DNA from: Escherichia phage vB_EcoM_Skers
Strand: one strand, 5' to 3'
DNA length: 64,000 bases
Sequence record: MW748999.1
In this document: piece after piece, positions 13,086 through 52,208 of the stretch
Numbering within the stretch: the first letter of the stretch is position 1
Layout: each line of letters opens with the position of its first letter
Translations under genes and position numbers: made by a program
Notes under the pieces: generated by a model
Told to the model about the DNA's origin: nothing
Seen by the model: the letters and a program-made list of their open reading frames with translations, nothing else
The model's database searches: none

Positions 13086-15226
<2,141 letters not shown>

Positions 15227-45503: not shown

Positions 45504-45586
45504 TGTTTGATTCTCCTAAGTGGTATCTCGTCTTGATGGTTGTATTGTAGGGGAGTTATCCTCCCCTGTCAACACTTTTTATAAAA
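45504..45586 (-). promoter_or_regulatory. PeSL-like early promoter cassette
   Basis: minus-strand TTGACA - GGGGAGGATAACTCCCC (palindromic spacer) - TACAAT; leader ...TAGGAGAATCAAACA-ATG. Confidence 0.6.
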
Positions 45587-45754
45587 TCATTTGTTAATTT
45601 CTGGTGCGTTGCTAGGATAGTAACCTTCTTTAACTCCGAGGTATTTCGCAACCATCCCTACAATCTTCTGTGCTACTACAATGTCAAATTTCAGATAATC
45701 TTCGCCGTGGGTTTCAATGATATATGCTTCACATGCTGCTTTCGTCTCGAACAT
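45587..45754 (-). CDS. hypothetical small protein, copy A of duplicated 55-aa gene (MFETKAACEAY...)
   Basis: ORF track 45587..45802, start placed at internal Met directly after the PeSL leader; about 85 percent identical at protein level to hand-translated copy B. Confidence 0.55.
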   Translation of the reverse strand: MFETKAACEAYIIETHGEDYLKFDIVVAQKIVGMVAKYLGVKEGYYPSNAPEINK

Positions 45755-45829
45755 TTTGATTCTCCTATATCTCGTTGGTATGTGTGTAGTATAGGGGATC
45801 ACCGATCCCCGTCAACAACTTTTTTAAAA
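45755..45829 (-). promoter_or_regulatory. PeSL-like early promoter cassette
   Basis: minus-strand TTGACG - GGGATCGGTGATCCCC - TATACT; leader ACACACATACCAACGAGATATAGGAGAATCAAA-ATG. Confidence 0.65.
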
Positions 45830-46183: not shown

Positions 46184-46453
46184 TTAGATATTTTCAGAAA
46201 TAAATTTTAAAACTTGACGTAAATGTTTCTCATCTTTGATAGTCGCCGGAAGTTCTTCTTTTACTTCCTGTGCAAGATAGATATTTCCGTTCCAAGTGAA
46301 AGATCCGTCTTCGTTTACGCGATAGCTGAACATCCACTCGCAATCATTTTCGATTTCATATACACACAGAAGGGTGTAATCGTTAAAGCTATTGATTTCA
46401 AGGTCGAAGCCGTGGCGTTTTGCAAAGTTGGTAGTGGTTTTAGTCAGTGCCAT
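46184..46453 (-). CDS. hypothetical protein (89 aa)
   Basis: ORF track; PeSL cassette immediately upstream. Confidence 0.5.
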   Translation of the reverse strand: MALTKTTTNFAKRHGFDLEINSFNDYTLLCVYEIENDCEWMFSYRVNEDGSFTWNGNIYLAQEVKEELPATIKDEKHLRQVLKFISENI

Positions 46454-46530
46454 TGTTTGATTCTCCTAAGTGGTATCTCGTTTCGATGTGTGTATTATGC
46501 TATAGGCGTGATCTGGTGTCAACAACTTTT
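46454..46530 (-). promoter_or_regulatory. PeSL-like early promoter cassette
   Basis: minus-strand TTGACA - 17 nt - CATAAT; leader ...CGAAACGAGATACCACTTAGGAGAATCAAACA-ATG. Confidence 0.6.
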
Positions 46531-46546
46531 TTAATTTTTTGGAAAT

Positions 46547-46571
46547 AAAAAAAGCCGACACTAAGGTCGGC
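46547..46571 (-). terminator. rho-independent terminator after gene 46580..46891
   Basis: minus-strand GCCGAC-CTTAGT-GTCGGC followed by TTTTTTT. Confidence 0.7.
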
Positions 46572-46579
46572 TAATAAAA

Positions 46580-46891
46580 TCATTTAGACAAATAATCATT
46601 CTGTGCAATCCGGTCAGCATGTTCCGGCGTTACGTCAATTGCAATCACTTTAACGCGCGCTTTCTTGACTGAATTTTCTCGTAGCCAGTGCGTGTGAGCG
46701 TGCACATTTTTATATTTTGATGCTGATGCGGTTTCAAAGGTACGGATCGGACCAGGGTAATCAGCGTAAAGGATCTCTAGGTCATCGGTGATGTAAAAAT
46801 ATACATCATAATTACTGTTCTCTAGTTTAAGCAGAGACTTTCGGAACATTGGGAGATTTTCGCGGGTAAATTCAAAGATATTATCTTTCAT
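46580..46891 (-). CDS. H-x-H-W family small protein, member 1 (103 aa)
   Basis: shares YDVYFYITDDLEI and HAHTHW...VKVIAIDVTPEHAD motifs with five other ORFs in this region. Confidence 0.6.
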   Translation of the reverse strand: MKDNIFEFTRENLPMFRKSLLKLENSNYDVYFYITDDLEILYADYPGPIRTFETASASKYKNVHAHTHWLRENSVKKARVKVIAIDVTPEHADRIAQNDYLSK

Positions 46892-46923
46892 AGTATTATC
46901 CTCAATAGTTGGATGAAAAGGGG

Positions 46924-46946
46924 CGTTAACGCCCCCATATATTAAA
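46924..46946 (-). terminator. hairpin terminator overlapping the stop of gene 46942..47229
   Basis: minus-strand GGGGGCGTTAACGCCCC followed by TTTTCAT. Confidence 0.55.
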
Positions 46947-47229
46947 ACAGTCCTTCCTGTACACCGTAGTAGAGTTCATCGCTGATAATTTCATTAATGC
47001 GACGGTGTGCATATTCCTGATTTGCGAAGTTATCAGCAAGTTCTACTTTAGTTTCGCCGTCATGAGTCCATTTAGTGATAACTTTACCATCTGCAAATTT
47101 GAAGTTGAACTCTTTAGCTACCGCATCGCGTACCAGACGTGCAAACTTATTGTTGCGGATTGCATTGTCGGTTTCGTGTGCAGCGTGAGCGAATTTGTTA
47201 ACTTTCAGGGTGATAGTAATGTATGCCAT
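46942..47229 (-). CDS. hypothetical protein (95 aa)
   Basis: ORF track; PeSL cassette immediately upstream. Confidence 0.5.
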   Translation of the reverse strand: MAYITITLKVNKFAHAAHETDNAIRNNKFARLVRDAVAKEFNFKFADGKVITKWTHDGETKVELADNFANQEYAHRRINEIISDELYYGVQEGLF

Positions 47230-47310
47230 AATTTGATTCTCCTAGTTAGAAAGTGTATCTCGTTTCGATGGGTGTATTATGCTATACACCCGATCTTATG
47301 TCAACACTTT
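47230..47310 (-). promoter_or_regulatory. PeSL-like early promoter cassette
   Basis: minus-strand TTGACA - 17 nt - CATAAT, hairpin GGGTGTATAGCATAATACACCC enclosing the -10; leader ...CTAACTAGGAGAATCAAATT-ATG. Confidence 0.6.
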
Positions 47311-47589
47311 TTATAAAATAATTTTTTGATATTTTTCTATGATGTTCGTGTAAGTCACATCAACCGCTAGCACCGTTGCTTCGAATCCACCGTTTAGCCA
47401 ATGGCTATGATCATGATCGTGAAAGAAACCTAGACCAGTACGAAGACCTTCTTTATATTCTGCGCGTACATTCAGTTTGTCGTCGATAAACAGATAAAAC
47501 CATGAATTTTTACTAGGATTGATGATACAACCTTTCAGATTAGGGAGAATATCACGACTAAGAATAAACTTATCACCTACTTTGAACAT
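47311..47589 (-). CDS. H-x-H-W family small protein, member 2 (92 aa)
   Basis: motifs WFYLFIDDKLNV and HDHDHSHW...ATVLAVDVT. Confidence 0.6.
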   Translation of the reverse strand: MFKVGDKFILSRDILPNLKGCIINPSKNSWFYLFIDDKLNVRAEYKEGLRTGLGFFHDHDHSHWLNGGFEATVLAVDVTYTNIIEKYQKIIL

Positions 47590-47603
47590 AATATTTTCCT
47601 CAC

Positions 47604-47912
47604 TTATAAAGTTTGACCGTTGTTTTTCGCATAATGCTTAATGCGTGCTTGATCTGCTTCCGCTGGTGATAGATTCCATGCAACCACTACAACTTCTGAC
47701 GCATCATGATCATTATCACTTACCCAATGATTATGATTCATACAATTGTTTGCTATCGCGTGAGTAAATGATCTCATTACCGGAGACGTATAATCATAGT
47801 AACGGATTTTCAGATTTTCATCAACGTACAAGTAGATCGTATACGGCTTATATTCAGTAACCAGTAACAGACAGTTACGCAATTCTGGGAAAATCTTTTT
47901 AGTTAATTTCAT
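47604..47912 (-). CDS. H-x-H-W family small protein, member 3 (about 102 aa)
   Basis: ORF track 47604..47993; start placed at internal Met (MKLTKK) just after the upstream stop; motifs YTIYLYVDENLKI and MNHNHW...VVVVAWNLSPAEAD. Confidence 0.55.
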   Translation of the reverse strand: MKLTKKIFPELRNCLLLVTEYKPYTIYLYVDENLKIRYYDYTSPVMRSFTHAIANNCMNHNHWVSDNDHDASEVVVVAWNLSPAEADQARIKHYAKNNGQTL

Positions 47913-47913
47913 T

Positions 47914-48123
47914 TTATAATCCTCGGTCGCGGCTATAGTACACTGTACGCCATACAATTTCATGTTTCGTGTCGCTCCAGCACACGATCTCATTTACTCT
48001 TAAATCTTTGTTATCAACAAAAGATGAACATTGTGACGCTTCTTTCATCATTTTATCTGCTGTTTTCTCATCAAATACAGCACAGATTTCTTTATACACT
48101 CGATAATCTTTAAACTTGCTCAT
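47914..48123 (-). CDS. hypothetical small protein, MSKFKDY paralog 1 (about 69 aa)
   Basis: ORF track 47914..48135 with start at internal Met; N-terminus MSKFKDYRVYKEI...ADKMMKEASQCSSF parallels the adjacent paralog. Confidence 0.5.
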   Translation of the reverse strand: MSKFKDYRVYKEICAVFDEKTADKMMKEASQCSSFVDNKDLRVNEIVCWSDTKHEIVWRTVYYSRDRGL

Positions 48124-48125
48124 AA

Positions 48126-48335
48126 TTAACACCAATCAAGAGTTTTTGAAAACACATCTATCCATTGTTGAGTATATGCGGTTTCTTTCCATGACACAAT
48201 ACCAGTCGAATAATGGTTTTTGTTTCCAGAAAAGGACGGGCATTTTGATGCATCTTCCATCATCTTTTCGGCGAACTCTGGTGCGTATACTCGCAGGATC
48301 TGTTGATATGCTTTATAGTCTTTAAATTTGCTCAT
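48126..48335 (-). CDS. hypothetical small protein, MSKFKDY paralog 2 (69 aa)
   Basis: MSKFKDYKAYQQI...AEKMMEDASKCPSF; tandem with paralog 1. Confidence 0.5.
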   Translation of the reverse strand: MSKFKDYKAYQQILRVYAPEFAEKMMEDASKCPSFSGNKNHYSTGIVSWKETAYTQQWIDVFSKTLDWC

Positions 48336-48600
48336 AATCGTTAACTACCTTATCAGCTTCTTTTATTGTTTTTACATCAACTGCGATAATCCGTAAAGGT
48401 TCGTCGAAGGTCCACCAGTGGTCATGAATATCAGCTTGTGATTTATCACCAAAGGAATCACGAATATCATTTTTACATTTATAGCTAATGTGACCTTCAT
48501 AGTCAACATAAAGGTAATTATCGAAAATCGGCGTTTTTAAGATCATACCGAAAAATCTTTCTTTGTGTGTCTTATCCAGTGTTGCAGTAATTCGCATCAT
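48322..48600 (-). CDS. H-x-H-W family small protein, member 4 (92 aa)
   Basis: motifs NYLYVDYEGHI and HDHWW...RIIAVDVKTIKEAD. Confidence 0.6.
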   Translation of the reverse strand: MMRITATLDKTHKERFFGMILKTPIFDNYLYVDYEGHISYKCKNDIRDSFGDKSQADIHDHWWTFDEPLRIIAVDVKTIKEADKVVNDYEQI

Positions 48601-48612
48601 AATATATTCCTC

Positions 48613-48792
48613 TTAGAAAGGGATGGTCATTTCTTGAGCTTGTACATTCTCGTTAGGATTAAACTTCATCCAACCGATATTGTCTACCAGCATATGCACA
48701 TTTTTATCATATCCTACGTGAGTAGTCAACACTAAATGTGCTTTACCTTCAACGATGATTTCCATGTACTTCTGAACTTCGATAGCTTTCAT
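48613..48792 (-). CDS. hypothetical small protein (about 59 aa)
   Basis: hand-translated (MKAIEVQKYMEIIVEGKAHLVLTTHVGYDKNVHMLVDNIGWMKF...); directly downstream of a PeSL leader; below track cutoff. Confidence 0.4.
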   Translation of the reverse strand: MKAIEVQKYMEIIVEGKAHLVLTTHVGYDKNVHMLVDNIGWMKFNPNENVQAQEMTIPF

Positions 48793-48857
48793 TTTTGATT
48801 CTCCGTTTGTTGTCTTGATGGGAGTATATTACTACTCCCTTTAATCATTGTCAACTA
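48793..48857 (-). promoter_or_regulatory. PeSL-like early promoter cassette
   Basis: minus-strand TTGACA - 17 nt - TAATAT, hairpin GGGAGTAGTAATATACTCCC over -10; leader ...CAAACGGAGAATCAAAA-ATG. Confidence 0.6.
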
Positions 48858-49025
48858 TTATTTGTTAATTTCCGGTGCGTTGCTCGGATAGTAACCTTCT
48901 TTAACACCCAGATATTTCGCAACCATTCCGGTGATCTTCTGTGCTACTACGATATCGAATTTCAGGTAGTCTTCACCGTGGTTTGCTACAATGTATGCTT
49001 CGCATTCTGCTTTAGTCTGGAACAT
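48858..49025 (-). CDS. hypothetical small protein, copy B of duplicated 55-aa gene (MFQTKAECEAY...)
   Basis: hand-translated; protein about 85 percent identical to copy A at 45587..45754; below track cutoff. Confidence 0.5.
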   Translation of the reverse strand: MFQTKAECEAYIVANHGEDYLKFDIVVAQKITGMVAKYLGVKEGYYPSNAPEINK

Positions 49026-49096
49026 TTTTGATTCTCCTATATCTCGTTGGTATGTGTGTAGTATAGGGGATCACCGATCCCCTGTCAACAACTTTT
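49026..49096 (-). promoter_or_regulatory. PeSL-like early promoter cassette (near-identical to the one at 45755..45829)
   Basis: minus-strand TTGACA - GGGGATCGGTGATCCCC - TATACT; leader identical to the cassette upstream of copy A. Confidence 0.65.
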
Positions 49097-49399
49097 TTAT
49101 TCTTCGTCTTTATCTTTATATGCGTATTTCATAAATTTGTCTGCTACTTCATCGGCATGTTCCGATTCTACGTCGGATTCGAGAACAATAGCAAGATCGG
49201 TTTCGTCGTTTCCGTCATACCAATGATTATGGGTATCGTTTTCTTCGATATAGAATGAGTCATTTGGAGTTGGACGACAATATACATCTAAATTCTCATC
49301 GATGTAAAAGATCCAATCTTCGTAAAGAATAACCGTATTAGCCAGATTTTTATTGCCTTCAACGAAAGGTTCAGCTACAAATAGCTTAGTTTGTTCCAT
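49097..49399 (-). CDS. H-x-H-W family small protein, member 5 (about 100 aa)
   Basis: ORF track 49097..49456 with start at internal Met (MEQTKLF); motifs WIFYIDENLDV and THNHW...LAIVLESDVESEHAD. Confidence 0.55.
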   Translation of the reverse strand: MEQTKLFVAEPFVEGNKNLANTVILYEDWIFYIDENLDVYCRPTPNDSFYIEENDTHNHWYDGNDETDLAIVLESDVESEHADEVADKFMKYAYKDKDEE

Positions 49400-49415
49400 A
49401 ATATTTTCCTCAAAA

Positions 49416-49607
49416 TTATACAGCTTCGTAAACTTCCCAATGTTCAGCGCCAGCACGCTTAACGAAAAGGTTTTCTTTGATGTTATTCATAAACGTCTGG
49501 ATGGATTTAATGCGGTTGGAAGGTTTCCAGTCTTCGTTGGAATTGCGTCGATACATCATAACATTACCAGATCGCTTATATTCAGCAACCATTTTAAGAC
49601 CACACAT
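49416..49607 (-). CDS. hypothetical basic protein (63 aa)
   Basis: ORF track; own promoter-like element upstream. Confidence 0.45.
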   Translation of the reverse strand: MCGLKMVAEYKRSGNVMMYRRNSNEDWKPSNRIKSIQTFMNNIKENLFVKRAGAEHWEVYEAV

Positions 49608-49685
49608 AATATTATCCTCAATTTGTGGGAGAGTATTACCCTCCCGATTATTGTTATACTACATTACGCAAAATGGCGTGTCAAT
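49608..49685 (-). promoter_or_regulatory. sigma70-like promoter with 5'-leader stem-loop
   Basis: minus-strand TTGACA - 17 nt - TAGTAT overlapping the 3' end of the upstream gene, then hairpin GGGAG...CTCCC and GAGGATAATATT-ATG. Confidence 0.5.
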
Positions 49686-49966
49686 GCTTCTTTTGCTGTT
49701 CCGCTAAGATTCTCGATCTCTCCTGGCATAACATCAACCGCCAGAACTTCTACAACATCCTCTGATCCTAACCAGTGAGTATGACCTTTGTAGAACTTGA
49801 TATCCCATTTATCGCTATCGCTAGCCCACCACACATCACCGTCGATAAAGTTGATGTAAAGCACACTACGACACATTGAATTAATTACTTTCAATACTGC
49901 GCCTTTCATATCTTCCACGGTATGGTCTTCCATTTTGAAGACCTCACCTACCTGAACTTTTGCCAT
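49664..49966 (-). CDS. H-x-H-W family small protein, member 6 (100 aa)
   Basis: motifs VLYINFIDGDV and GHTHW...VVEVLAVDVMPGE. Confidence 0.55.
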   Translation of the reverse strand: MAKVQVGEVFKMEDHTVEDMKGAVLKVINSMCRSVLYINFIDGDVWWASDSDKWDIKFYKGHTHWLGSEDVVEVLAVDVMPGEIENLSGTAKEALTRHFA

Positions 49967-49983: not shown

Positions 49984-50163
49984 TTACATAACAATCACGC
50001 CAGCCGTTGAAAGTTGATGTTTCAACTGAGCATTTTCTGCTACTGTCAAATCAATGATTTCTTGTGACGCTGCAATCATATAGCCATTGGTGATATTGTT
50101 TTTCATCAGTTCAATGGTTTCTTCGTTGTAGCGGATTTTAGCGATGATTTCGTTGAAGTTCAT
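49984..50163 (-). CDS. hypothetical small protein (about 59 aa)
   Basis: ORF track 49984..50229 with start at internal Met (MNFNEI) directly after the PeSL leader. Confidence 0.45.
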   Translation of the reverse strand: MNFNEIIAKIRYNEETIELMKNNITNGYMIAASQEIIDLTVAENAQLKHQLSTAGVIVM

Positions 50164-50239
50164 GTTTGATTCTCCTAGTTCGTTTCGGTATGTGTGTAGT
50201 ATAGGGGATCGGTGATCCCCTGTCAACAACTTTTTTGAA
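50164..50239 (-). promoter_or_regulatory. PeSL-like early promoter cassette
   Basis: minus-strand TTGACA - GGGGATCACCGATCCCC - TATACT; leader ACACACATACCGAAACGAACTAGGAGAATCAAAC-ATG. Confidence 0.65.
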
Positions 50240-50716
50240 TTATTTTTCTTGATGCTCGCGCTCGTACTTTTCGAAATAAAATTCTACTGGCTGGTCGTGG
50301 ATTGACAGTAAGCCAAAGCGTTTAGCCGCTCGCAATCCCATATTGCGCTGAATGTACTTCTGGAAGTTCTCGCGTATACACTTACGCCAGTATTCTAAGC
50401 CCATACAGCTTTTATAAAGATTGCATTGCACACATGCCGGATTCATGTTATCAAGTATATCATGCTCCGGTTTATGCATTCCTACAACCTTATACTTCCA
50501 CGATCCATCATCATTACGGGCAATTCGTCCATTTTCATCATAGACTACCTTTGAGCGTCGCAATACTGGTTTGATGTGGTCTGCGTGCCAGCGATCCCCT
50601 AGTTCCTCGCCACAATAGGCACAACGTCCACCATATTTCATTTTCAGGATCTGGCGTTGCTCTTTCTTTGACAATTTTTTAGGTTTAGGGGCTTTCGCCC
50701 CTTCATTATCACACAT
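50240..50716 (-). CDS. HNH endonuclease (free-standing, homing-endonuclease-like)
   Basis: 158 aa; HNH core GRCAYCGEEL...WHADHIKPV...NMNPACVQCN (Cys pair, His-x-Asp-His, Asn, Cys pair); start overlaps DNA ligase stop. Confidence 0.75.
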   Translation of the reverse strand: MCDNEGAKAPKPKKLSKKEQRQILKMKYGGRCAYCGEELGDRWHADHIKPVLRRSKVVYDENGRIARNDDGSWKYKVVGMHKPEHDILDNMNPACVQCNLYKSCMGLEYWRKCIRENFQKYIQRNMGLRAAKRFGLLSIHDQPVEFYFEKYEREHQEK

Positions 50717-52208
50717 CGAATACCTCTTTTACTGTATTTGCAGTGGTCTTGTCGTAGCGAATACGTTTGATGATCGGGAGAAATAAAGAGAACTCTGGTT
50801 CATCTTCTTTACGTGATTTGCTGCGGATATACCCGTTGCATGTCATCTCAATGACTTTTCCAATCAGGTTATGACGGTCAGCCCATAACATTTCTCGGTC
50901 AAGTTCATTTCTACGATCGAACGGAATCACACGTTCAATACCATCATCTTTTTCGGTTGTAGTGTCGGTCAATCCCGATCCGGTGTTGGTCATCATTCGT
51001 CCGCACGCACTACGGACAGTAAAACCGCCTACCTTATTAGGATCTTTACTATGCGGATATACATCAACAATTTCCGCGTCGAAGTCAATCACTTCTTTAA
51101 ATTTAACCTGATCTTTACTACGGCGATCTTCAAATACACCATGTAAATTTTTAAGGATAATACCTTCTAAGCCCATGTTTACATAGCGATGATATACTTC
51201 GCGAGCTTCATCTATATTGTTAACTACAGTGTTTTCGATTATCTGAACACGAGGATCGTTAAGTTCTTCAACAATCTGTTTTAGTTCTTCGAATCGATCT
51301 TTATATTGCTTCGTTGCTTTCTCGTTTCCGTAATACACATCACGGTCGATAACATCCCAGACAGTGTAAACAATACATTGGGCTTCTTCTTTTGGAATAG
51401 TTCCTTTCAGTGATTTGTTGAGGATACCATTTCCGGTCTGACGATCTGCAACAACGGATTCTTTTACTGCTTCCGCTACTGGCGTTAATGGCATTTCCTC
51501 TTCTTCAAATATCCATGACAGAGTACCATCATAAACGCTTTCAACGAAGTTCTGCGCTGGTGTTTGCGAAAGGGTAGGCATATATACCAATTCCCCATCT
51601 AGAACAATTCCACGGCCTCGTAGACGCTCTAAAACAGCAAACAAATCATCCAGCCCCTGATAGGTATTACCTGAACGGGTATAGATTGCTAATGTTTCCC
51701 CGTCAATATCAGCCATCCCACGAGCGCCATCGCTTTTAAGTTGTGCATACGCCGGATACTTGATATTAGCAATAGTCTTATCAGAACATGACGATGCAAG
51801 GTGGCACGGTTGCTGAGGGATCAGTTTCTTCCATACCTTGTTTGCAGTGGTAGCGGAACAACCGCATTCCAGATCACGATTCAGGACCATCATTGCAACT
51901 TTAGCATCATCTTCTGACAAGCAAGTCAGAGTATCGGTAACTAGCTGTAATGCTGCATTACCAGTTACTTGACGCGTGGCAAGTTTATTTTTAAAGACCT
52001 GTAATGCACCGGATAAAGACAATACAGACGAATAACGCGATGGTTTATCGTATTTCTTTACGCCAAACGTAACCTGTTTGCAATATGCCAGATAAAAACA
52101 TTCTTTCAGTGTTTCATTGCTTGCAGATTCTTTCAGGATCTTTTCTTTCAGCGATGTTTTGTCTGTTGCTGCAAGCTGGTTAATGATATTAAGAATTGAC
52201 ATTTTCAC
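50709..52208 (-). CDS. 30: gp30 ATP-dependent DNA ligase
   Basis: 499 aa (T4 ligase 487 aa); motif I lysine in AQLKSDGARG (KxDG); located after alt region as in T4. Confidence 0.9.
   Translation of the reverse strand: MKMSILNIINQLAATDKTSLKEKILKESASNETLKECFYLAYCKQVTFGVKKYDKPSRYSSVLSLSGALQVFKNKLATRQVTGNAALQLVTDTLTCLSEDDAKVAMMVLNRDLECGCSATTANKVWKKLIPQQPCHLASSCSDKTIANIKYPAYAQLKSDGARGMADIDGETLAIYTRSGNTYQGLDDLFAVLERLRGRGIVLDGELVYMPTLSQTPAQNFVESVYDGTLSWIFEEEEMPLTPVAEAVKESVVADRQTGNGILNKSLKGTIPKEEAQCIVYTVWDVIDRDVYYGNEKATKQYKDRFEELKQIVEELNDPRVQIIENTVVNNIDEAREVYHRYVNMGLEGIILKNLHGVFEDRRSKDQVKFKEVIDFDAEIVDVYPHSKDPNKVGGFTVRSACGRMMTNTGSGLTDTTTEKDDGIERVIPFDRRNELDREMLWADRHNLIGKVIEMTCNGYIRSKSRKEDEPEFSLFLPIIKRIRYDKTTANTVKEVFDV

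Follow-up and report, generated by a model that had tools for sequence, protein, structure and literature searches.

What do a series of small, similar early genes do for the T4-type phage that carries them side by side? This question was raised by a stretch of 64,000 nucleotides (nt) from Escherichia phage vB_EcoM_Skers (MW748999.1; the whole stretch is called the window), in which six minus-strand open reading frames (ORFs) lie within 3.4 kb. A preliminary description of this DNA had regarded them as one paralogous family that could not be placed in any named family, and had ascribed the array to diversifying pressure, plausibly linked to host takeover or counter-defence, with a His-His-Trp cluster as a suggested metal or nucleotide binding site. 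Here, the letters A to F designate the members of the array in ascending window coordinate, and residue numbers (Y34, D36, H61, H63, W64 and D77) follow B. Our analysis confirmed that A to F are true paralogs forming one family of six. We found them under purifying selection, and we propose tentatively that their products act as non-enzymatic early binders with paralog-specific targets.

All six minus-strand ORFs were located in the window's ORF list where the preliminary description had placed them (Table 1), and the motifs it quoted were all found: the aromatic strand (YFYITDDLEI and others), the His-Trp cluster (HTHWL, HSHWL, HNHWV, HDHWW, HNHWY and HTHWL), A-[VI]-D-V and P-x-[EH]-A-D. The mechanical ORFs of C (47604-47993) and E (49097-49456) are longer than the called genes, whose internal ATGs (at 47912 and 49399, respectively) are backed by an upstream GAGGA/T Shine-Dalgarno sequence and by the family alignment. 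This Shine-Dalgarno sequence, located at -12 to -8 (7-8 nt upstream), is strong, uniform and common to 6/6 genes.

Hidden Markov models (HMMs) built from five members were searched against all 606 stop-to-stop ORFs of at least 40 amino acids (aa) in the window. The sixth member was in each case the top non-training match (E-values from 8e-14 to 2e-5), the best unrelated ORF scoring about 0.4, and no seventh member was detected by HMM among these ORFs. Profile-profile comparisons (hhalign) of the six ortholog groups were colinear for 15/15 pairs, with P-values from 2e-4 to 7.5e-16 against 0.004-0.44 for reversed-template controls, and the predicted folds described below also matched. The pattern H.HW was counted 6 times in the 51,843 aa of window ORFs, versus 0.48 expected from composition; it was confined to A-F, once per member and at the aligned position. 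These comparisons place the similarity beyond chance. In a MAFFT alignment, identity to A was 22-33% and H-x-H-W was invariant among the six. Because the paralogs are only 19-33% identical at the protein level and have no DNA-level repeats in common, they are not recent duplicates produced by the promoter-early stem-loop (PeSL) cassettes of this region.

Selection was estimated by the Nei-Gojobori method among orthologs from 8-10 genomes. The ratio of nonsynonymous to synonymous substitution rates (dN/dS) was 0.09 for B, 0.11 for F, 0.14 for C, 0.15 for D, 0.18 for E and 0.23 for A, all inside the range of the neighbouring small ORFs (0-0.33); DNA ligase gave 0.025, and the HNH endonuclease gene (50240-50716), which is under strong purifying selection, gave 0.04. 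These values indicate that A-F are real, constrained genes, and gene-wide positive selection was rejected. Synonymous divergence was raised at two loci, dS being 0.42 for A and 0.61 for E versus about 0.13 in other genes. Divergent alleles segregate at A, D and E, and in some genomes divergent alleles replace D and B (for example P0103 at the D position in contig L013). The raised dS at A and E, together with the divergent D and B alleles, indicates that old alleles are exchanged by recombination. Among orthologs, strands β3 and β5 were invariant, and substitutions and indels clustered at the N-terminus, in the loop leading from β4 to the motif and just past the motif.

The window belongs to a Krischvirus (RB49-like T4-type coliphage), and a 4.3-kb region of it matched 58 phage records at 90-99% identity, including RB49, phi1, JSE and GEC-3S. 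When the homologous region of RB49, E26, Whisky, ELT3, JK32, SFHK24 and two IMG/VR contigs (L005 and L013) was scanned by HMM, the same six members were recovered in one order each time. Exceptions came from two further genomes in the scan: in JSE, A and E are apparently frameshifted, perhaps through sequencing errors, and a C-like gene stands instead of B; in L006, A is missing and B is partial. The preliminary description had called for a check of copy-number variation in relatives; only frameshifts and allele swaps of this kind (JSE, L006) were seen. Diversifying pressure, in the gene-wide sense in which it had been invoked, is thus not supported: dN/dS is purifying, copy number is fixed and the duplications are old.

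A word-indexed search of 5.8 billion proteins returned 87 matches, each at least 72% identical to one of A-F, and 1.84 billion cluster representatives, searched exhaustively with a HMMER profile, yielded 20 proteins only, all Krischvirus-like. When the profile search was iterated once on a larger alignment, the only gain was a divergent allele of D (P0102, P0103), encoded on another Krischvirus contig, and a scan of viral contigs with the E subfamily added only two further Krischvirus contigs. The most distant relatives, P0088-P0099, are encoded on metagenomic contigs of 1-2 kb with PeSL-like DNA and homologs of the neighbouring small ORFs, and therefore come from divergent Krischvirus-like phages. 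Judged by these searches, the family is limited to Krischvirus-like phages. Among the short contigs, gene context was informative for L002 alone. Within 2.1 kb of this contig, four adjacent genes encode five family domains: an F-like gene, a 203-aa natural tandem fusion (P0088, positions 823-1434, with a B-like N-terminal half and a C-terminal half most similar to E and B), and one gene each of D-like and C-like type. Since the paralog types are already separate in L002, the duplications are old and predate its divergence.

Chimeric or frameshifted copies of family genes are also known (P0087, A and E of JSE, and kvi_65). P0087, from an 848-nt ENA contig, is a chimeric 71-aa ORF in which the first 9 residues (MKAIEVQKY) of the ORF at 48613-48792 are joined to the C-terminal two-thirds of an F-type member; its sequence is consistent with recombination within the array.

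Structural models were in agreement with a common ancestry of the six proteins. The AlphaFold2 model of B had a mean predicted local distance difference test (pLDDT) score of 85.4 and a predicted template modelling (pTM) score of 0.79; the model of E, with the elements in the same order, had a pLDDT of 84.6 and a pTM of 0.80. In the B model, the elements are β7-9, α12-18, β22-24, β31-35, β41-45, a variable loop, the H-S-H-W sequence opening α62-67, β70-75 and α83-91, which gives the order β1, short helix, β2, β3, β4, long lower-confidence loop, His-Trp element, β5 and C-terminal helix. Independently predicted BFVD models of the other paralog types superposed on the B model with template modelling (TM) scores of 0.65-0.71. 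With good confidence, each member is predicted to be a soluble single-domain protein of about 100 aa, made of a five-stranded small-β-barrel-like sheet with a short N-terminal and a C-terminal helix. The same fold was predicted for an 88-aa protein encoded beside F in JSE (EpJSE_00215, L011 12112-12378; BFVD C4MZ33, TM 0.66-0.69), which is absent from the window and has G-N-G-H-L where the family has H-x-H-W.

The conserved residues centre on the His-Trp motif. H63 and W64 were invariant in 45/45 family sequences, and the first His (H61) was found in 42/44; two natural E orthologs (P0083, P0084) have Ser in its place, and P0093 lacks it. Across the 45 sequences, Y34 was Y or F, D36 was D, N or T, and D77 was D, N or G; A-D was frequent at the start of the last helix and no conserved Arg or Lys was found. 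The proteins differ widely in charge, net charge ranging from 0 to about -20 and isoelectric point (pI) from 4.07 to 6.95.

The statement that the array falls outside every named family held in all sequence searches made. Neither Pfam, NCBIfam nor PADLOC gave a match above threshold for A-F, no Pfam family recurred among 37 members even at E <= 10, and the best PDB sequence-profile match had an E-value of 0.42. That match, to "NHSHWIT" in the IsdC NEAT domain, was rejected as chance. In PHROGs, the six proteins fall into five families of unknown function, A and C together. For the alternating His of A and B, HIT, cupin and MBL readings were rejected, as this run is not family-wide and no fold matched; neither the HIT motif (H-φ-H-φ-H-φ-φ) nor the cupin motif (G-x5-H-x-H-x3,4-E) was found family-wide with a matching fold. 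We also rejected a JAB/MPN (JAMM) metalloprotease. The PROCT profile gave 18.7 bits against a cut-off of 23.6, in 2/37 members only, and JAB, Prok-JAB and RadC gave no match. The JAMM motif E...H-[ST]-H-x7-S-x2-D, in which the His pair runs straight into the helix, does not fit, because in the family W and then β5 follow H-x-H before the P-x-E-A-D helix, at a spacing of about 22-27 residues; no upstream Glu is conserved in the family, and the family models do not have the MPN fold.

Structural resemblance to Tis1 (6ox6_B), AcrIIA7 (8kbi_A) and Tad2 (9eib_A) is a likeness of class and not homology: identity was 6-12%, no motif is common and no family profile matched. In a structure search with model E, Tis1 was absent and AcrIIA7 and Tad2 scored 2.9 and 2.6, so that their earlier rank was not reproduced.

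Collectively, these data lead us to favour, at somewhat less than even probability, the view that A-F are anciently diverged Krischvirus-specific paralogs acting as non-enzymatic early binders with paralog-specific targets. In the hyperplastic region from alt to ligase, each gene takes a promoter-distal place in an early transcription unit of sigma70 type (PeSL), and the proteins would be made immediately after infection as stoichiometric binders. A conserved scaffold (Y-I-D in β3, V-L-A-x-D-V in β5 and the His-Trp element) would display surfaces that differ from paralog to paralog in the variable loop, the N-terminus and net charge. The paralogs may each act on a target of their own, in the host or possibly in the phage, to bring about host takeover or counter-defence, and two domains may work side by side, as hinted by the tandem fusion P0088. 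The retention of six genes, the age of the types, the divergent pI values and the variable loop argue for non-redundancy and specialisation of the paralogs. As neither a family nor a PDB entry matched and basic residues are not conserved, no signature of an enzyme or of a nucleic-acid-binding protein is seen. Several points weigh against the binder hypothesis. A role as binders or in anti-defence is inferred only from the class and the anatomy of these genes; fixed copy number and purifying selection are not usual for arms-race accessory genes; the invariant His-Trp, the near-invariant second His and the two mostly acidic positions could instead form a catalytic or metal site; and the family may have a remote known relative. 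Host takeover or counter-defence, as put forward in the preliminary description, is a reasonable guess but an unsupported one. A more elaborate version is doubtful, in which a hitherto unrecognised anti-defence or host-takeover family, without a solved fold relative, would display a hypervariable loop on its conserved His-Trp scaffold; the loop would have diversified long ago into six specificities, with divergent alleles passing between phages, and each member would neutralise its own immune effector or host factor of E. coli, possibly as a pseudo-dimer in the manner of the tandem fusion.

The paralogs could alternatively be metal or small-ligand binders or mini-enzymes, the two His combining with the Asp of β3 (Y-I-D) and that of β5 (A-V-D-V) into a 2-His/carboxylate site for Zn, Ni or Fe with a catalytic or sensing role. 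The invariance of H63 and W64, the near-invariance of H61 and the presence of D36 and D77 each in about 70% of the 45 sequences agree with such a site, as do the extra alternating His of A and B (H-A-H-T-H-W and H-D-H-D-H-S-H-W) and the position of the motif in a moderately confident region beside a flexible loop, where functional sites often lie. However, strict metal ligands are rarely as replaceable as these: besides the loss of the first His in P0083, P0084 and P0093, D36 gives way to N in F and T in A, and D77 to N in C and several relatives and to G in some of the E orthologs. Together with the motif-less structural relative in JSE and the lack of a match to cupin, HIT, JAMM, MBL or any metalloprotein family, this makes the reading unlikely; a metal site at His-His-Trp is possible, compatible with the data but not required by them. 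The other ligand suggested by the preliminary description fared less well: D, E and F are acidic (Table 1) and basic residues are not conserved, so that a phosphate-binding nucleotide site is unlikely. The same features bear on the idea that the proteins are sponges for immune-signal nucleotides in the manner of Tad2 or Acb2, each paralog taking up a different second messenger and the His-Trp pair stacking on bases. Small, early, multi-copy genes with an invariant aromatic residue and His are compatible with nucleotide recognition, but the structural scores were at noise level, DUF2829 gave no Pfam match at E <= 10 in 37 members, basic residues for phosphates are not conserved, E carries a net charge of about -20 and neither PADLOC nor the searched anti-defence literature holds such a family. 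We give this idea only a slight chance.

Somewhat less improbable, although still poorly placed, is a role as Sm/KOW/SH3-like small-β-barrel nucleic-acid binders that would be active early in infection as modulators of host or phage RNA, of translation or of ribosome assembly. The source annotation of a B-type ortholog, P0072, reads "KOW2-KOW3 domains of Spt5", the only trace of such a family label, and at their N-termini B and F look like a KOW-type hairpin (V-G-D/E-x-F). Against this, no KOW, Sm or S1 Pfam match was obtained at E <= 10 among the 37 members, Pfam gave no LSM or SH3 match either, no Arg or Lys is conserved, and proteins that are neutral to strongly acidic (pI 4.1-6.95, E at about -20) are atypical as RNA or DNA binders. 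Finally, the array could be functionless or selfish cargo kept by PeSL-mediated cassette duplication and shuffling, or ORFs miscalled in repeat-rich DNA. The region is indeed a PeSL hot spot with demonstrated mini-circle shuffling (PMC2839356), other duplicated small genes lie nearby, and the chimeric and frameshifted copies listed above would fit. This explanation is nevertheless largely refuted and very improbable, given the low dN/dS at substantial dS, the order of the six kept across genomes with recognisable types in a divergent relative, the strong uniform Shine-Dalgarno sites, the confident and mutually consistent AlphaFold2 folds, and the sequence distance between paralogs without DNA-level repeats, which shows that they are not recent PeSL duplicates.

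The transcriptional setting agreed with the preliminary description, which had proposed an early region rich in promoter cassettes, in a T4-like phage. The array is located between alt and the genes for the HNH endonuclease and DNA ligase (gene 30), in a PeSL-rich hyperplastic region whose RB49 counterpart comprises ORFs 191-211. PeSL cassettes were described in this region of RB49 and phi1 by Arbiol et al. (2010; PMC2839356), who showed promoter and terminator function with reporter assays and PeSL-mediated mini-circle formation around ORFs 191-194 and 210. The window contains six copies of a 62-nt PeSL-like repeat. Minus-strand sigma70-like promoters (TTGACA-17-TAtAaT), the only kind by which the array is driven, match 10-11/12 consensus positions, reaching 11/12 within 45.5-50.3 kb, and the T4-type late motif TATAAATA was not found between 33.3 and 53.2 kb of the window. 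None of A-F directly follows a promoter or PeSL, each being preceded by an unrelated small ORF with gaps of 1-50 nt; C starts 1 nt past the stop codon of the upstream ORF and lies 14 nt upstream of B. The interleaved small ORFs all belong to PHROGs of unknown function, and a DNA methyltransferase gene is located just downstream. No promoter separates the stem-loop at 46920..46936 from A, and this stem-loop is a possible attenuator.

Table 1. Array members and associated transcription signals, in window coordinates.
Feature	Position	Strand	Description
Member A	46580..46891	-	103 aa, pI 6.9; phrog_9345; RB49p197 ortholog; last gene of its cassette, then terminator
Member B	47311..47589	-	92 aa, pI 6.9; phrog_17255; RB49p199 ortholog
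Member C	47604..47912	-	102 aa, pI 6.95; phrog_9345; RB49p200 ortholog
Member D	48322..48600	-	92 aa, pI 5.45; phrog_15972; RB49p203 ortholog
Member E	49097..49399	-	100 aa, pI 4.07, net charge about -20; phrog_15965; RB49p206 ortholog
Member F	49664..49966	-	100 aa, pI 4.89; phrog_16486; RB49p208 ortholog
PeSL cassette	50177..50238	-	TTGACA, 17-nt palindromic spacer GGGGATC..GATCCCC, TATACT; drives 59-aa ORF 49984-50163, then F
sigma70-like promoter, 10/12 match	49656..49684	-	overlaps 3' end of F; drives ORF 49416-49607 (63 aa), then E
PeSL cassette	49039..49100	-	overlaps E stop codon; closes E unit; drives 55-aa ORF 48858-49025
sigma70-like promoter, 10/12 match	48826..48854	-	drives tightly packed ORF 48613-48792, D, ORF 48126-48335, ORF 47914-48123, C, B
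PeSL cassette	47255..47316	-	overlaps B stop codon; drives ORF 46942-47229 (95 aa), then A
GC-rich stem-loop	46920..46936	-	GGGGGCGTTAACGCCCC then TTTTC; between ORF 46942-47229 and A; read from sequence
Intrinsic-terminator-like hairpin	46553..46572	-	AGCCGAC..GTCGGCT and T-run; 8 nt past A stop
Next PeSL after A terminator	46473-46534		

Several neighbours of the array deserve mention in their own right. The 95-aa ORF upstream of A (46942-47229; phrog_7474) had dN = 0 and dS = 0.14 in 9 genomes and is by far the most constrained small gene of the region. A 55-aa gene (MF[EQ]TKA[AE]CEAYI...YYPSNAPEINK) and its upstream PeSL are present twice, the genes at 45586-45757 and 48857-49028 and the PeSLs at 45751-45826 and 49023-49098; with 84% nucleotide identity between the gene copies over 172 nt, this pair has the look of a cassette duplicated recently, whereas the H-x-H-W paralogs are ancient. 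The adjacent small genes 47914-48123 and 48126-48335 (MSKFKDY[RK][VA]Y...) are tandem paralogs between D and C, and a homolog also precedes the A/C-like gene on the metagenomic contig L004. Two 103-aa plus-strand ORFs (46223-46534 and 47005-47316) with a common C-terminal sequence (...ISFR.VYYAI...CQ..F) were rejected as genes; they are the opposite-strand reading of the conserved PeSL repeat. The HNH endonuclease gene (50240-50716) overlaps the 3' end of the DNA ligase (gp30) gene (50709-52208) by 8 nt. In RB49 (L001 4617-5127) and JK32, the interval from the p194 to the p197 ortholog contains additional small ORFs (RB49p195, 196 and 196.1). The window lacks them at the corresponding position (46454-46579), directly adjoining A, and they represent an RB49-specific indel listed by Arbiol et al. 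(PMC2839356). In contig L013, the same hyperplastic region encodes, downstream of the methyltransferase, a 172-aa RB49p187 ortholog (14165-14683) with a precomputed Pfam match to GmrSD_N (DUF262). One would not expect such a match in an early gene of a phage, and it may bear on conflicts over DNA modification.

The nearest known arrangement is that of the PeSL-ORFan cassettes of RB49 and phi1 (PMC2839356; PMC4122927), which come from the same genome type and the same hyperplastic region and consist of small orphan ORFs between early-promoter/stem-loop cassettes. A-F resemble these ORFans in their hyperplastic-region position between PeSLs and in being database orphans. They differ in that their number and order are fixed in the genus, whereas ORFans such as 192, 195, 196, 210 and 211 vary in presence between close relatives (PMC2839356; PMC4122927), and in that none of A-F comes first after a PeSL, unlike the shuffled ORFans. 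Neither of the two PeSL-cassette papers (Arbiol et al. 2010, PMC2839356; PMC4122927) mentions a paralog family, and we found no paper on these six ORFs. The array can also be compared with loci of another type, although its setting is a phage early region and not a bacterial toxin locus, and no toxin genes are adjacent. In polymorphic-toxin loci, diversified immunity proteins stand in tandem; they are small, have one fold in common, have diverged as paralogs and are presumed to neutralise partners that differ from one paralog to the next. The only trace of such proteins in the family, a Pfam match to Imm19, was at chance level (E 0.048, 1/37 members).

The proteins themselves are already catalogued as hypothetical or of unknown function: the RB49 orthologs of all six are annotated "hypothetical", and PHROGs 9345, 17255, 15972, 15965 and 16486 contain the same proteins as A-F (E 1e-43 to 1e-65). 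PHROGs keeps these as five separate families with marginal cross-matches, whereas here they form one superfamily with a common fold and motif. Bringing them together as a single six-paralog family, with fold and motif defined, appears to be new. Orphan early-gene families that are specific to one lineage and lie in the hyperplastic region of a T4-type phage are well known in kind, and the specialist will not be surprised.

T4-type phages carry hundreds of early orphan genes in their hyperplastic regions, mostly of unknown function, and this class is a major source of host-takeover and anti-defence factors. Merging five "unrelated" unknown PHROG families yields one superfamily whose predicted fold is confident, whose His-Trp site is invariant and whose variable loop is mapped. 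Phage therapy collections make use of Krischvirus phages, for which the superfamily offers a tractable set of six genes that lend themselves to single or joint deletion and to clear point mutants at H63 and W64; the natural alleles of A, D and E form series in which specificity could be mapped. The analysis also corrects the expectation of a fast-evolving accessory array: the six genes are a stable part of the genus genome under purifying selection.

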